This document shows, piece after piece, positions 4,851 through 61,087 of a stretch of DNA of 64,000 nucleotides; the first letter of the stretch is position 1; the number at the start of each line of letters is the position of its first letter. Origin of the DNA: a virus. A model generated the notes under the pieces. The model was not told where the DNA came from, ran no database searches, and saw nothing but the letters and a program-made list of their open reading frames with translations. Position numbers and translations under genes: made by a program. The DNA is taken from the IMG/VR virus record IMGVR_UViG_3300027963_000040; one strand, given 5' to 3'.

Positions 4851-5016
4851 ATCATAATAGCCTTTTTTTTAAAAAAATAGCAAGCATTTTCTTTTTGAAT
4901 GGAATCAATGGCTTACGGAATCGCTTTAGTTAAGTGGTTGAAATCATTAAAAATAAAAAAAAATATCAAAAAACACGAAAAAAGTGCTTGACTTATTTTT
5001 AAAAATGGCGTAAGAT
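4851..5016. promoter_or_regulatory. divergent early promoter pair with A/T-rich spacer and inverted repeat
   Basis: CTTGCT..TATTAT on minus, CTTGAC..TAAGAT on plus; strand switch point. Confidence 0.8.
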
Positions 5017-5043
5017 GCAATTATGATGATGAAAGGAAACGAA

Positions 5044-5229
5044 ATGTATCTCGTGAGCTTTACGAATTTCGCCTACACCAAGGCATTCAATGACATCGAC
5101 CTCGCGATCGCTCATATGGAGCGCGCGGGGTTTGAGTCGGTCCTCATGACCTCGGTGGGCGAACGCCTCGGCGAGTTTCGTCCCCTGGGCGGTGGATTTT
5201 CTTTCGATCGGTACCGAAAAATCGCTTGA
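5044..5229 (+). CDS. hypothetical early protein
   Basis: AAGGA RBS, promoter 4987-5016. Confidence 0.65.
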   Translation: MYLVSFTNFAYTKAFNDIDLAIAHMERAGFESVLMTSVGERLGEFRPLGGGFSFDRYRKIA

Positions 5230-53974: not shown

Positions 53975-54290
53975 TGTCGGTTGATTCTGTTTCGAGGCTC
54001 AACCGTAAGCCCAAGAGATTACGCCGCTAGGCGAGTCTCAACTGCAAAGTTATCGTTTGCATTTGTAGTTTCGAACTGATTGAGGGTCGTATCTTACCCA
54101 TTGCCTACTTCAACCCTTACCGTCGCCAGTCGATCCTGTTTCGTCCCCGTCAAAAACACACTGTTACACTCACTTCTTGGAGTAAGAACCGATGCTATAA
54201 AAGCAAGGGTCCCCAATGTGCTTTTGGTGGAGACGCACGGTACTGCCCCGTGGTCCTGACAAACCTATTTGATTGCTATCAACAGCAACT
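53975..54290 (-). ncRNA. ssrA: two-piece circularly permuted tmRNA (alphaproteobacterial type)
   Basis: Acceptor piece ends CGTCTCCACCA at 54225 with a GGCAGTA T-loop; intervening segment 54149-54224; coding piece starts GGGGACG at 54148 (G3:U70); tag ANDNFAVETRLAA* at 54060-54019. Confidence 0.93.
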
Positions 54291-54332
54291 TCTTATTTAT
54301 ACCCTAGTTTGAAGGAAAAGTCAAGGATTATT

Positions 54333-54762: not shown

Positions 54763-55188
54763 TTACTTATTTTTCCCACACCAAGTGTCGGTTTGGGAAT
54801 GACAGTTTGGACACAAAAATCTTAAGTTAGACTTTTTGTGATTATTACTATTTCCGTCAATGTGATCCAGGTGTAGAACAATTTGTTTTCCGTTCCAATC
54901 CGAGATACCACATTCAACACATTTGTAATCAAAAACTTTCTCTTGCAGCAATTTTTTCTTAACTTTTCCGGTCTGAAAATAAGGATGAAGACCTTCCAAA
55001 ATTTCTTCTAACGGAACTTTTTTTGTTGTATTTCCGCCTATAACAAAACCTAGATCTAACTTTTTACAAAGCCTCCAAACTTGGACAGTTGGAATTTCCA
55101 ATTCAGCTGCCATTTTCCCAAGATGTTTATGTTTTTCGTAGCAAGCTTTTACTTGTTCTTCAGTGATTTGTTTGTGCTTTTGTATCAT
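54763..55188 (-). CDS. HNH homing endonuclease in the tRNA cluster
   Basis: CxxC, LHLDHIDGN..N....NLRFLCPNCH; own late promoter. Confidence 0.9.
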   Translation of the reverse strand: MIQKHKQITEEQVKACYEKHKHLGKMAAELEIPTVQVWRLCKKLDLGFVIGGNTTKKVPLEEILEGLHPYFQTGKVKKKLLQEKVFDYKCVECGISDWNGKQIVLHLDHIDGNSNNHKKSNLRFLCPNCHSQTDTWCGKNK

Positions 55189-55424: not shown

Positions 55425-55498
55425 TGGAGCGGGATAGGGGAATCGAACCCCTGTCCTCAGCTTGGAAGGCTGTGATAATACCATTATACTAATCCCGC
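55425..55498 (-). tRNA. tRNA-Gly(TCC)
   Basis: Cloverleaf, CCA; 5' end overlaps the last codons of the upstream CDS. Confidence 0.88.
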
Positions 55499-56497
55499 AT
55501 TCTTGATTTTTTGATCAAGAAAATTGATTTTTTCCGAATAAGTCCCTGAACCATTCTGATCTGATAAGTTGGCTAGTTCCATCAACATCAGATCTTTGTG
55601 CATCCGTTCATCATAACTCGGTTCGTTATTTATAATCTTGTTATACCTATCGCGAAGAGTGCAAAACTCGTAAGCCAGCTTTTCGGAATATTCGCCGATC
55701 ATACCTCTTACAACTTCACGACTTATTTGACTCGAATTGTTGTAGTTGAAAAACTCTGTACCGTATACAGAATGAAACAGCCCTGCTCTACAGACATCCT
55801 CCGATCCTTTCAACACCTCTAATCTTAGCATAGTGTTGAAAAGATGTTCGAAGAATGTACGCTTAGAGTGAGGTATATTGACCGCAAGTTCTTTGATAAA
55901 CTCAACTAACTCGCTGTTAAAATTTGGATCAAGAGTCTTGAACACTAATACCGTTCTCAACGTAGGACACATCCTAGAAAGAGGTCTTGCCGCATGCAAC
56001 TTGTTTGAATCAAAAACCAACAGCCTACCGAACTTTGGTAGAATTGAACTCTCGATCTCTCTGTTATCATCATATATCACTGTTTCACCAGCCCAATCAA
56101 TGTCCCAGGATTCATTCAGGTAGAGTATGGCAGTCTCTGACATAGAGTCGTCGCCAAACTTCTTTTTAATCCAAGAATCATCATAGTGAGCATAAGCATC
56201 AGTGCCGTAAGTGTAACCGTTTATATACACTCGAAGCAAAGATCTTTGACCTATAACACCACAAATGCTATTCCATATTTGTTTAAGCTCTTTGTGGTTG
56301 TTAATGTAAGGCATGTCAGCATGGTCGTATGGTTCAATCTTACTGTTGTTCAGTATGTTATTGTTCCAGTGTCCAAAATCCCCTTTCAGGTTAACATTGG
56401 ACTTCCAACCAAACTTTAGACCATTATCAACGTAACGTCTAGTGATCGTCTTTAGTAGCTCTGGGGCTTGTAACGTTACTACGGTTGTGTTTTTCAT
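55484..56497 (-). CDS. 2OG-Fe(II) oxygenase fused to an HD-like (DUF6817-type) domain
   Basis: HYD...AGET...LHAAR...R; HS.RTF.EHL...AGLFHSVYGT. Confidence 0.8.
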   Translation of the reverse strand: MKNTTVVTLQAPELLKTITRRYVDNGLKFGWKSNVNLKGDFGHWNNNILNNSKIEPYDHADMPYINNHKELKQIWNSICGVIGQRSLLRVYINGYTYGTDAYAHYDDSWIKKKFGDDSMSETAILYLNESWDIDWAGETVIYDDNREIESSILPKFGRLLVFDSNKLHAARPLSRMCPTLRTVLVFKTLDPNFNSELVEFIKELAVNIPHSKRTFFEHLFNTMLRLEVLKGSEDVCRAGLFHSVYGTEFFNYNNSSQISREVVRGMIGEYSEKLAYEFCTLRDRYNKIINNEPSYDERMHKDLMLMELANLSDQNGSGTYSEKINFLDQKIKNAGLV

Positions 56498-58207: not shown

Positions 58208-58243
58208 CTCAAAACTCCTTCTAAGAAATTGAGAACGAATCAG

Positions 58244-58315
58244 AGGACCGGGTGGGATTTGAACCCACGTTATAGAGATTAAAAGTCTCCTGTTTGGCCA
58301 CTAAACTACCGGTCC
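58244..58315 (-). tRNA. tRNA-Lys(TTT) without CCA; acceptor helix extended by 12 perfect bp (58233-58327)
   Basis: Cloverleaf with CTTTTAA loop inside a 19-bp inverted repeat. Confidence 0.8.
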
Positions 58316-58403
58316 TCTGATTCGTTCAACTCATCATATAGGTAATATACCGTGTTTTCATAAAAAAGTCAAGGAGTTTTTTCATTAACATTTTTTTATT
58401 TTT

Positions 58404-58478: not shown

Positions 58479-58507
58479 AAAAAAAGAGGCGGAAACTAGT
58501 CCGCCTC
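58479..58507 (-). terminator. intrinsic terminator of the DUF2828 transcript
   Basis: GAGGCGGA-CTAGTT-TCCGCCTC followed by a T tract. Confidence 0.85.
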
Positions 58508-58519
58508 CGGAGGAACTAT

Positions 58520-59926
58520 TTAGGCATAACGATCGACCATAAGAGTCTTCATCATAACGCCAACCGGAGTCAGGTTCTCCATATCACCAGACAGGACTGC
58601 CTTTAGAATGGATGGGCTGAAACCAGAAACCAGAGCAACTCCCCGTTCGTTAAACTTCACAGGCACATTATCCCTAGCGTTTAGATTCCAGAACACAACG
58701 TTCGGCATCTGGTAACCAGCTTCCTCATACTTGTTACGGATCATCTCAATAGCAGAGTCGTCTTGCTTAACGCAAGCATCGAACTGCATATCAGACATAA
58801 TCAGCAGAGTCTGAGGCATTTCCTCCTGAGGAACCTTACCCTTAAGCGCGACATCAAGAATCTTGTTGAACGCAGCGTGAAGATTGGTGTTCATTCCCCA
58901 CTTAGAGGTTACCATCTGTTGCACCTTCTGTAGGATGTCACCCTTCAGATTAAGCAGCTGAGGAGATTCAGAGAAAGTCAGGAACGTGTCCTTGAACTTA
59001 CCCTTGTTCTTATCAGCACAGTAAAGCCCAAGGCTAACAGCAACGTCCATAGCGGTAGTCTTACTACCACCTATGGCGGTTACCATAGAACCAGACACGT
59101 CAACCAGCGGAAGAACGTTGGCTTCGCCGATATAGTTCGGCAGAGCCTCCCACTGAGCAACTACAACATCGAGCTCCGTGTTATCGAGAGACGGTAATCC
59201 TAAAAGGTAGTTAGAAACTCCCTTCAGCACGTCGTAAGGATAGACAGCGCCAGCGTTAACCTTGACGGTCTTATCACCCTTGACCAGCTTCTCAGCCCAC
59301 TCCTTGTATTTCGGAGTGTTACGATTGAATGCCTTCTTGTAACGAGAAGCTGCAAGAGAAGGAACGTGGGAGAAGTTGATACCATCCCAATCCTTGGCGC
59401 ACATCTGAGTCTCAACAACCTTAGTCCGATTGACAAGAAGCTTACGGTACTGCTTCGGAGACAGCTGTAGAGCAGCGCGCAGCTTTACTGCGACCGGACC
59501 CTTACGTGGCATCCACTTAGCACACAGACCGTTGCCATCGATAAGAGCGGTGGCGATCTTACGAATAATGTACTCCTGGATATCAGCGTCAACTCCATCC
59601 TCAAGAAACACCAGCAGGTCGTCCCAGCGACCCAGTTCTGGAGTCTTGTCAATCAGATGCCGATTCACAGTGTGCTTCATAATCTTACGGAAGATCTCGC
59701 GCTCGCCCGCACCCTCGCGCACGTCGCGCGCCCAGAGAGCGATACGAGTTGCGATTTCTGCATCTTCAACGAAAGCTGCGGTGAACGCAGGAATCGGATC
59801 CTGTCCACGCATAGCTCCGATCTTGAAAAATAGATCGACGCAAGCAGAAGCTGTAGATGCTCGTGTCTTCATACCATTCTCGGTACGAGCTTCCTGGTTG
59901 ATAACTGCATTAGCGAAAGTATTCAT
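58520..59926 (-). CDS. DUF2828 family protein (TROVE/Ro60-like helical domain plus vWA)
   Basis: RDVR.G.GER, GRWDDL, AKWMPR, VPS.A, DVSGSM MIDAS, GMNTN, SDMQFD, VFWNL, VSGFS. Confidence 0.85.
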   Translation of the reverse strand: MNTFANAVINQEARTENGMKTRASTASACVDLFFKIGAMRGQDPIPAFTAAFVEDAEIATRIALWARDVREGAGEREIFRKIMKHTVNRHLIDKTPELGRWDDLLVFLEDGVDADIQEYIIRKIATALIDGNGLCAKWMPRKGPVAVKLRAALQLSPKQYRKLLVNRTKVVETQMCAKDWDGINFSHVPSLAASRYKKAFNRNTPKYKEWAEKLVKGDKTVKVNAGAVYPYDVLKGVSNYLLGLPSLDNTELDVVVAQWEALPNYIGEANVLPLVDVSGSMVTAIGGSKTTAMDVAVSLGLYCADKNKGKFKDTFLTFSESPQLLNLKGDILQKVQQMVTSKWGMNTNLHAAFNKILDVALKGKVPQEEMPQTLLIMSDMQFDACVKQDDSAIEMIRNKYEEAGYQMPNVVFWNLNARDNVPVKFNERGVALVSGFSPSILKAVLSGDMENLTPVGVMMKTLMVDRYA

Positions 59927-59945
59927 TTTATTCTCCATGATGTTA

Positions 59946-60003
59946 CAGGCTGAACTTTTGGCTTTTTCGAAGAGCTTTGTTAGATGCTGAACTCAACCTA
60001 AAA
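59946..60003 (-). ncRNA. ncRNA array unit D
   Basis: TTTTAGGTTGAGTTCAGCA...TCAGCCTG terminal helix. Confidence 0.65.
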
Positions 60004-60007
60004 TAGA

Positions 60008-60127
60008 CAGGATCGTTTTTGCTTTGACGGTTGCTCTACCATTGAGCTACATCAAGTGGTGCTTGATGATGGGATTCGAACCCATAACCAACTGTTTATG
60101 CGAATGATTGCAGAACAGATCCTAAAA
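60008..60127 (-). ncRNA. ncRNA array unit C: YrlA-like RNA with permuted tRNA domain
   Basis: TTTTAGGATCTGTTCTGCA...GATCCTG; inside, T arm, then loop-closed acceptor stem, then D arm. Confidence 0.75.
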
Positions 60128-60131
60128 TAAA

Positions 60132-60256
60132 CAGAGTGGCGCCTACTTCCTTTTTATCCTTGAGAAATCGAAAAACAAGTTGTCAGGTTCGCCGAAGCTT
60201 GCCGACTGTTCCGGAGGCACTTTAGTGCCGAAGGTGTTGCTGTATCCACTCTAAAA
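60132..60256 (-). ncRNA. ncRNA array unit B
   Basis: TTTTAGAGTGGATACAGCA...CCACTCTG; internal multi-branch hairpins. Confidence 0.65.
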
Positions 60257-60261
60257 CTAAT

Positions 60262-60325
60262 CGGGATTGTCTTGACCGCTAAGTCACAATGTTTAGCGAG
60301 GTTGTTTGCTGAATCAATCCCTAAA
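60262..60325 (-). ncRNA. ncRNA array unit A
   Basis: TTTAGGGATTGATTCAGCA...CAATCCCG; internal CGCTAA/TTAGCG hairpin. Confidence 0.65.
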
Positions 60326-60342
60326 CTCAATCTTATATAGTC

Positions 60343-60372
60343 ATCATACCCTAGATTTTCGATTTAGTCAAG
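60343..60372 (-). promoter_or_regulatory. early promoter driving the ncRNA array and DUF2828 gene
   Basis: CTTGAC-N18-TATGAT. Confidence 0.8.
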
Positions 60373-60391: not shown

Positions 60392-60468
60392 TGGTACTCC
60401 CTGTCAGATTCGAACTGACAACACACTGAGCTTAAATCAGATGCCTCTTCCAATTGGGCTAAGGGAGC
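60392..60468 (-). tRNA. tRNA-Leu(TAA), short variable loop
   Basis: 77-nt cloverleaf, CCA; overlapped by the 3' end of the HNH ORF. Confidence 0.8.
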
Positions 60469-61087
60469 AATATCTTAACTTGTTGACTCTATCGTAGTTA
60501 CCGCCCTTCGGCGTTAATCCGACGTTCAACAAGACTTGACGAATGGTAAGACCCTTTTCTAGTTCTGTGAGGATTTCTTCGTCGGAAACTTTAATCTTAC
60601 CAGTATTTATGTTTTTGCCTCTATAAAACTTAGTTTTAGCATGACAGTTAGGGCATAACAGTAACAAGTTTTCTTTTACGTTGTTCCTGTTATTTCCGTC
60701 TTTATGTTCTAGTTCCAGCGGAATAGGTTCACATAACCATTCTGTGAGATCACAACTTTCACAACGATGCCCTCGTTCTTTAATAAGAACTTTCTTATGC
60801 GAACCTTTACCGTCATAAGAAAAGTCTGCGTTACTTTTTTCTTTATTCCAACTCATACGAAGTTTTGATTCTTTTGGAAGAGAAGCGTAAATCAATTTAG
60901 CGTTTCTTTTACCAGAAGAATTGGCTTCTTTCAGCCCTCTGCTATTTTTCAGTCTGTTAGCTTCACATTGATTTGATGATTCGGAACAAGATAGTTTCCC
61001 GGACTTGTTCCGATATTTTGCAACAAAACCACATCCGTATGAACATAGTTCTGTCGTTATTACGCTCTCTGAAATCATTTTAGGCAT
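60437..61087 (-). CDS. HNH homing endonuclease
   Basis: CSYGCG N-terminus, CESC, LELEHKDGN..NN...NL.LLCPNCH; own late promoter 61114-61121. Confidence 0.9.
   Translation of the reverse strand: MPKMISESVITTELCSYGCGFVAKYRNKSGKLSCSESSNQCEANRLKNSRGLKEANSSGKRNAKLIYASLPKESKLRMSWNKEKSNADFSYDGKGSHKKVLIKERGHRCESCDLTEWLCEPIPLELEHKDGNNRNNVKENLLLLCPNCHAKTKFYRGKNINTGKIKVSDEEILTELEKGLTIRQVLLNVGLTPKGGNYDRVNKLRYCSLSPIGRGI

Follow-up and report, generated by a model that had tools for sequence, protein, structure and literature searches.

Ro60 and its Y RNAs form a classic RNA-surveillance particle. Ro60 carries Y RNA on the outside of its ring and takes up the ends of single-stranded RNA in the hole at the centre. 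In the bacterial and phage version the protein, Ro60 or Rsr, is a ring with a von Willebrand factor A (vWA) domain and its MIDAS (metal-ion-dependent adhesion site); several small RNAs, including YrlA and YrlB (RF02553), lie beside the gene and on its strand, the two ends of each pair into a closing helix, and one of them includes a permuted tRNA mimic (Chen et al. 2014, PMC4201824). The Ro60 of Thermus phage phiLo (PDB 9KOP, 9L5Y) binds two upstream Y-like RNAs, Yrl1 and Yrl2 (PMC12135203). In phage Bas63, gp130 was described as Ro60-like in structure and lies directly upstream of tRNA genes, and the authors guessed that some of these 'tRNA genes' are Y RNAs; they identified no RNA (PhageMaP preprint, 2024, PMC11482910). 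Here we describe a locus at positions 58,479–60,372 of a 64,000-nt stretch of DNA from a freshwater phage, IMG/VR record IMGVR_UViG_3300027963_000040 (the whole stretch is called the window below), in which four small non-coding units, A to D, precede the gene for a DUF2828/DUF7788 protein. By analogy with the particles above, the locus is probably a divergent Ro60/Y-RNA-type ribonucleoprotein system with a handle of its own and RNA bodies that can be exchanged.

The locus shares with the Ro60/YrlA systems a predicted ring protein with a vWA domain and MIDAS, several small end-paired RNAs beside the gene and on its strand, and one RNA with a permuted tRNA mimic, here unit C only. It departs from them in its protein, which belongs to DUF2828/DUF7788 and not to TROVE, and in its RNAs, which in loci of this type form arrays with many classes of interior, or cargo. 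The phiLo locus likewise combines a phage protein of Ro60 fold with Y-like RNAs just upstream of the gene, whereas its protein carries a TROVE annotation and a large bulge with a CGAA motif is the hallmark of its RNAs (PMC12135203). An initial annotation, made from the letters of the window, had proposed the order of promoter, four units, DUF2828 open reading frame (ORF) and terminator, and each of these can be read directly in the sequence (Table 1). It had also likened the protein to Ro60 in architecture, regarded the units as interchangeable modules of a new system in a tRNA island, and suggested several checks. Three of them, for repeated units near other DUF2828 genes, for covariation of the terminal helix and for likeness of the predicted fold to Ro60, gave results that did not go against its reading.

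All four units are built around one handle, which consists of an end helix of 6–7 bp, a box R-U-W-C-W-G-C-A that immediately follows the 5′ strand, a stretch rich in A ahead of the 3′ strand, and CU-GU as the 3′ end. The common start given in the initial annotation, TTTAG-N5/6-RTWCWGCA, occurs exactly four times in the window, always on the minus strand and within the array (60325–60307, 60255–60238, 60126–60109 and 60002–59985), against 0.00 occurrences expected (100 shuffles). Each unit was said to end with the complement of its own 5′ segment; all four pairings could be read, that of unit D with one G-U, and the terminal helix is present in every minimum-energy fold. Between helix ends the units measure 53–120 nt and not the 58–125 nt first reported. 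The 3′ ends are N5′-CU-GU in B, C and D, and CCC-GA in A. Unit A holds a small internal hairpin (CGCUAA/UUAGCG) and is found again in two close relatives, contigs L001 and L002; the cargo of unit B has at its end a T-loop-like hairpin (loop UUUUUCGAUUUCU) followed by AAAAAGGAAGUAGG; unit D has a short hairpin and doubles as the mRNA leader. A covariance model built from short units of relatives (R1) recovered unit D at 53 bits (E 2e-11), unit A at 26.7 bits (E 1.7e-4) and unit C at 19.3 bits, and nothing else in the 64 kb; unit B was not caught, being lost at the speed filters. A very loose regular expression run over the window returned noise only. No pairing register between the box CAGCA and the A-rich 3′ stretch was consistent across cargo classes, so we take the box to be single-stranded, which agrees with the probing of the Dictyostelium RNA DdR-21 (PMC7919456).

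We then turned to relatives, using 80 viral contigs that code for proteins 60–91% identical to that of the window. The 5′ motif is present in most of them, with 156 anchors on the gene strand and 14 on the opposite strand. For a covariation test the anchors were kept independent of pairing and consisted of the 5′ box together with the N5-CUGU that comes first downstream of it. Out of 100 distinct units, 75 pair at all five free positions, compared with 7.3 ± 2.4 (maximum 16) when partners are shuffled, and several Watson–Crick pair types occur at four of the five free helix positions. This test replaced a first control, in which helix sequences were swapped between anchors and which was uninformative (84/156) because helices within an array are similar. 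RNAalifold, applied to 45 short units, returned the terminal helix as the only structure, with compensatory changes at four of its seven pairs; in this set no variation occurs in the box, in CUGU or in the flanking A-U and G-C pairs, and the 3′ CUGU is nearly invariant among the relatives. Covariation of the terminal helix is thus strong, and the earlier statement that it varies in sequence while keeping its pairing is borne out. The units also lie close to the gene: 112 of 144 end no more than 700 nt upstream of it, half (72/144) no more than 100 nt from its start, and at least one unit falls within 700 nt in 61 of the 72 contigs with enough upstream sequence.

The protein matches DUF7788 (E 5e-52) and DUF2828 (E 3e-23) in Pfam, with a weak match to VWA_2. 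An AlphaFold2 model built from a 130-sequence alignment reached a predicted local distance difference test score (pLDDT) of 93.4 and a predicted template modelling score (pTM) of 0.91; a single-sequence model (pLDDT 39) was discarded. The model contains a helical-repeat ring closed by a C-terminal vWA domain. When it was compared with the PDB using Foldseek, the top 13 matches were all Ro60 chains (Thermus phage phiLo, Xenopus, Deinococcus and human), the best being phiLo Ro60 (E 8e-9). VIA-align superposed model residues 13–455 on Xenopus Ro60 (2I91_B; Z 22.0, root-mean-square deviation 4.0 Å, 410 aligned residues); its ten best entries were all Ro60, and the next tier matched in the vWA domain only (Z ≤10.7). 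The MIDAS is complete, and its residues D280, S282, S284, T351 and D383 (472-aa numbering) are invariant in 130 relatives. The Ro60-like architecture proposed from the sequence therefore recurs in the model over its whole length. Identity to solved Ro60 structures is 11–17%. A family profile places Ro60 on top in the PDB, yet with an E value of 0.016, and reaches phiLo Ro60 at E 0.1 only; the window protein alone as query did not reach phiLo Ro60 at E up to 10, and a search of the ESM Atlas led to no family other than that of the protein itself. Because the fold matches over the whole length and the sequence-profile link is barely detectable, the protein is, as modelled, a Ro60-fold member of a separate sequence family.

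Relatives of the protein occur in 711 GenBank phage records. We selected ten loci from very different phage groups and defined the handle as a 6–7 bp helix, 2–4 nt and CAGCAA; it stands beside the DUF2828 gene in eight of them (arrays in Table 1), so that repeated units recur near other DUF2828 genes in distant phages as well as in related contigs. A neutral descriptor gave 28 matches on the gene strand of the distant loci, 5 on the opposite strand and 4.3 in shuffles. The gene order around gp130 of Bas63 is the same as that in BPS17L1, also of the Felix O1 type, and this shared order suggests homology between gp130 and the window protein. The sole handle-like element of Vibrio phage nt-1 (L083, 1965–2005) has its 3′ helix strand overlapping the DUF2828 start codon and the ribosome-binding site in its loop, an arrangement that, judged from the sequence, would fit translational self-control. 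Listeria phage LP-048 has a match to ROOL RNA (L085, 469–1020; 90 bits, gathering score 99.1) ~1 kb upstream of DUF2828, among tRNA genes, and an RtcB-like ligase gene ~1.3 kb downstream.

The interiors of the units had been considered unrelated; instead they fall into cargo classes also found in other phages. Unit C matches the Rfam model of YrlA (RF02553) at model positions 24–84 with 38.8 bits (E 2.5e-6), and units A, B and D have no match to it. The order of its parts, T arm, closed 7-bp acceptor-like hairpin and D arm, is that of a permuted tRNA mimic of the YrlA type, and across 16 units of this kind, taken from different phages, the T and D arms covary, with compensatory changes at 11 of 16 pairs. 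The class of unit B (a GAGUUUCGAUUUCUC hairpin, then AAAAAGUAGAAAA) recurs across many related contigs, with a T-loop-like hairpin at the end and AAAAAGUAG after it. Unit D represents a short class, whose place in most relatives is immediately ahead of the start codon. Between close relatives, whole units are gained or lost at exact borders: L001 and L002 have one more unit, inserted at the precise junction of A and B, and in both the helix of unit C is kept around a different interior. These sequence comparisons support the idea that the units behave as exchangeable cassettes, as the initial annotation had suggested.

The extra unit itself (L001 2130–2205; L002 ~2095–2195) has its arms in natural order (D arm, anticodon-like stem-loop, T arm), with the handle helix in the place of the acceptor stem; the loop in L002 is CUUCAAC (anticodon position UCA). 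The handle also occurs as a closed hairpin (N5′CU, a loop of 3–4 nt, AGN5 and the CAGCA box) in place of the anticodon arm of tRNA-shaped RNAs (Table 1), one further example of which, in L044, is cut off at the contig start. The Rfam tRNA model reads these closed-handle RNAs as tRNAs with a long insert. Since the closed form replaces an anticodon arm, helix and box appear to make up a self-contained module.

Table 1. Features of the window locus and handle units in other viral sequences.
Feature	Sequence	Position	Strand	Details
Sigma-70-type promoter	Window	60371–60343	minus	TTGACT-17 nt-TATGAT, 10/12 consensus positions
Units A–D, back-to-back non-coding array	Window	60325–59945	minus	Between promoter and DUF2828/DUF7788 gene
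Unit A	Window	60261–60325	minus	Helix 60321–60315 / 60269–60263 (GGGATTG/CAATCCC); box AUUCAGCAA 60314–60306
Unit B	Window	60131–60255	minus	Helix 60252–60246 / 60139–60133 (AGAGTGG/CCACTCT); box AUACAGCAA 60245–60237
Unit C	Window	60007–60126	minus	Helix 60123–60118 / 60014–60009 (AGGATC/GATCCT); box GUUCUGCAA 60116–60108
YrlA-type tRNA-like body in unit C	Window	60030–60092	minus	T arm, closed acceptor-like hairpin, D arm
Unit D	Window	59945–60002	minus	Helix 59999–59993 / 59953–59947 (AGGTTGA/TCAGCCT, one G-U); box GUUCAGCAU 59992–59984
Shine–Dalgarno GGAG and likely start ATG	Window	59936–59933 and 59926–59924	minus	From sequence and relatives' alignment
Predicted Ro60-like protein gene	Window	58520–59926	minus	DUF2828 + DUF7788/vWA (Pfam), 468 aa
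Intrinsic terminator	Window	58508–58485	minus	9-bp stem, 6 G-C pairs, T run
4 units	BPS17L1 (Felix O1-type)			Among downstream tRNA genes
5 units	Klebsiella KP13-16			Downstream of gene
3 units	Mycobacteriophage DirkDirk			Downstream of gene
3 units	Listeria LP-048			Upstream of gene
3 units	Staphylococcus SEP9			Downstream of gene
2 units	Campylobacter PC14			Upstream of gene
3 units	BUCT-ZZ01			Upstream of gene
tRNA-shaped RNAs with closed handle	L081; L049/L052; L089	3590–3710, 3723–3836; ~560–680; 4945–5055		Acceptor stem, D arm, T arm, encoded CCA

A Ro60/Y-RNA-type system could work as follows. One promoter would drive the four small RNAs and then the gene for the Ro60-fold protein, and the primary transcript would probably be cut at the unit borders to give RNAs of ~53–120 nt. 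The protein would bind the handle, as Ro60 binds Y RNAs (PMC4201824, PMC12135203), and the variable interior would be the working part, which recruits or imitates something, here mostly parts of tRNAs. Protein bound to the leader unit D could feed back on its own translation. A likely role would be the handling of tRNA or structured RNA during infection, and the particle may possibly counter tRNA-directed host defences as a decoy or adapter. The tRNA/tmRNA (transfer-messenger RNA) island in which the locus lies, and the presence of RtcB and RNA ligase genes near homologues in Listeria LP-048 and Salmonella phage Munch, suggest a role in RNA or tRNA damage and repair. In mycobacteriophage LeBron, genes for a polynucleotide kinase and an RNA ligase accompany that for the 'Ro-like' gp53 (PMC13148394), and the Ro60-like gp130 of the Felix O1-type phage Bas63 counters the Ppl defence (PMC11482910).

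Alternatively, the units may be RNA elements that work without the DUF2828 protein, as punctuation for operon processing or stability or as tRNA-like decoys bound by host factors, and the gene may be a frequent neighbour. A search from the RNA side bears on this possibility. We scanned a viral collection by RNA pattern alone and counted only loci with strong R1 matches (n = 38); raw pattern matches were not counted, because the pattern has 14 bases, the collection is huge and chance helices, with G-U allowed, come to about 1 in 3. The gene lay in the fetched stretch at 21 of the 38 loci, always on the same strand and mostly 70–700 nt downstream, and elsewhere on the contig at five; the remaining 12, about a third, were on contigs without the gene. 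Such gene-less contigs speak for protein-free units, as do several phages in which units sit among tRNA genes 0.3–1.2 kb or more away from the gene, and the sole protein shown to bind a Dictyostelium Class I RNA, a similar RNA discussed below, directly is an RNA recognition motif (RRM) protein and not Ro60-like (PMC7919456). Ten of the 12 gene-less contigs, however, are estimated to be only 3–17% complete, one is at 62%, and one 5.7-kb contig (L135) was covered over its own length only; the only nearly complete gene-less record gave a weak R1 match of 21.9 bits, and no strong unit was found in such a record. Whether the phage has a Gram-negative, a Gram-positive or an actinobacterial host, RNA and gene recur together and always share a strand, and most relatives have a unit directly before the start codon. 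The predicted fold, moreover, is that of a known RNA-binding ring, the partner of end-paired RNAs of this kind. We consider it unlikely that the units act without the protein.

A second possibility is that the RNAs mainly restrain the protein, as a sponge or antitoxin, and are not effector-carrying partners; this we regard as improbable. In type III toxin–antitoxin systems such as ToxIN, near-identical ToxI repeats are cut by the toxin, an endoribonuclease. The window locus resembles ToxIN in having a small-RNA array ahead of the gene of its presumed binding protein, and this layout of promoter, RNA array and protein gene would suit an antitoxin. So would the leader unit, which abuts the ribosome-binding site, and the moderate toxicity of LeBron gp53 when overproduced alone (PMC13148394). 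Unlike ToxI, however, the units are not near-identical repeats: their interiors differ in sequence and length and form distinct conserved cargo classes that include tRNA mimics. The protein has a predicted Ro60 fold, and no nuclease fold appeared in structure comparisons of the model; no terminator was found between array and gene; and many phages have their units downstream of the gene or dispersed among tRNAs. That the units are functionless debris of the tRNA island, either decaying tRNA genes or repeats, is highly improbable, for the box does not vary and the helix carries compensatory changes among units whose proteins are only 60–65% identical, and the units keep a strict strand bias; in favour of debris are the tRNA arms of unit C and the labels tRNA-OTHER or pseudo-tRNA that annotators sometimes give to elements of this kind.

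Several observations nevertheless weigh against a Ro60/Y-RNA-type system, among them the third of strong R1 loci on gene-less contigs. The handle, with its helix and CAGCA box, is unlike the Ro-binding stem and loops of the YrlA consensus (model positions 1–23 and 85–114), and the YrlA score of unit C is below the gathering score of 69. Pfam does not detect TROVE (PF05731) in the protein. Two of the ten distant loci, those of Munch and ME3, have no unit near the gene. The fold stability of units A–D is unremarkable against shuffles (z −0.2 to −2.4, with unit C at −2.4), and the case for structure therefore rests on the comparison with relatives.

The handle also resembles the Class I RNAs of Dictyostelium. 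These are ~42–65 nt long and have a short covarying end helix, whose 5′ strand is directly followed by CCUUACAGCAA; the interior varies, the 3′ part is rich in A and the 3′ end is CUGU. DdR-21, for example, consists of GUUGAC, CUUACAGCAA, a variable stretch, an A-rich one, GUCAAC and UG (Kjellin et al. 2021, PMC7919456). The phage units have a Class I-like build, (AG)N5-xUxCAGCAA ... A-rich-N5′(CU)GU, and UACAGCAA is exactly common to unit B and to units of the Staphylococcus and Klebsiella phages, matching Class I RNAs. Compared by eye with the 11-nt CCUUACAGCAA, in which U3, C6, C9, A10 and A11 are near-invariant, all four window units have C6, C9 and A10 and three of the four have A11, with G or A in place of U3. 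The CUGU end with its C paired to a 5′ G, a Class I feature, is present in units B, C and D and not in A. Class I RNAs differ from the phage operon and its bacterial promoter in being eukaryotic, with dispersed genes and their own promoter element (DUSE), and they were reported to be unique to dictyostelids (PMC7919456). The supplement to that study nevertheless lists an Arabidopsis candidate with the full handle (GUUUUC, AUUACAGCAA ... GAAAAC, UG; model score 40) and a Capsaspora candidate that has it too, both set aside for want of the amoeba promoter (PMC7919456).

These likenesses raise the speculative idea, to which we give little credence, that handle and DUF2828 ring protein form one ancient particle of phages, other viruses, bacteria and eukaryotes, in which Class I RNAs and their plant look-alikes would be the eukaryotic partners and the phage version a plug-in platform that displays tRNA parts against tRNA-directed defences. 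A hint in its favour is that proteins combining DUF2828 and DUF7788 are widespread in plants and fungi, with 27–38% identity to the phage protein. Another hint is that DDB_G0281243, a protein of unknown function, is one of four proteins pulled down with DdR-21, a Class I RNA. The known direct binder of Class I RNAs, Rnp1A, is an RRM protein (PMC7919456), which counts against the idea, and a short motif with a helix could have arisen twice.

The gene for the Ro60-like protein is opened at 59938 in the program-made ORF list. Its likely start is the second ATG, at 59926, because GGAG lies 6 nt upstream, relatives align from query residue 5, and the ESM Atlas has the 468-aa form, with letter-for-letter identity. 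The promoter, whose sequence is kept in L001, comes directly after tRNA-Leu (60392–60468), and tRNA-Trp (58478–58404) follows immediately after the terminator. The locus does lie in a tRNA island, one of 25 tRNA/tmRNA genes, and its neighbours are T4-like replication genes. A megablast search of the locus against GenBank phages found no match. Lake-water metatranscriptome contigs contain the stretch, and two runs cover the array best; we count this as presence in RNA libraries only, because the runs were picked using this stretch and contigs give neither ends nor levels.

Other elements of the island include a gene for a 2OG-Fe(II) oxygenase with DUF6817 (55484–56497, minus); HNH endonuclease-like ORFs lie at 54763–55188 and 60437–61087, the second of which overlaps the 5′ part of tRNA-Leu. 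A two-piece (permuted) tmRNA lies at 53975–54328 (minus; Rfam tmRNA_permuted 117.5 bits, alpha_tmRNA 105 bits), with the ARAGORN tag peptide ANDNFAVETRLAA, and may hint at an alphaproteobacterial or cyanobacterial host. tRNA-Lys(UUU) (58243–58315, minus) is flanked by a 13-bp inverted repeat, GAACGAAUCAGAG / CUCUGAUUCGUUC (58229–58333), that lengthens its acceptor stem. One RNA-library contig omits exactly 58239–58332, and another stops at 58229 with sequencing adapter beyond; these breaks may mark excision or processing of the tRNA-Lys hairpin.

The initial annotation had presented the system as new, and this holds for the RNAs more than for the proteins. Apart from the part-match of unit C to YrlA, the handle RNAs have no Rfam family at E up to 10, and we found no description of them in the literature searched, the nearest being the Y-RNA guess for Bas63 (PMC11482910). 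The proteins are already named 'Ro-like RNA-binding protein' in some database records. Ribozymes, CRISPR repeats and retron RNAs were considered and rejected: there was no Rfam match to any of them at E up to 10, the neighbourhood lacks reverse transcriptase and cas genes, and the units are non-identical.

If the locus is indeed a Ro60/Y-RNA-type system, it would be part of a large second branch of Ro60, represented by the 711 phage records, with an RNA handle peculiar to it and a repertoire of exchangeable bodies that include whole or partial tRNA mimics. The units would provide an RNA partner for a protein family still called a 'domain of unknown function', and they would account for many of the 'spacers' and unusual 'tRNA-OTHER' entries annotated in the tRNA islands of phages. 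They would also offer a concrete candidate molecule for the one reported phenotype, the action of Bas63 gp130 against the Ppl defence. Should the likeness to Class I RNAs reflect homology, it would point to a protein partner for an abundant class of eukaryotic RNAs of unknown mechanism.

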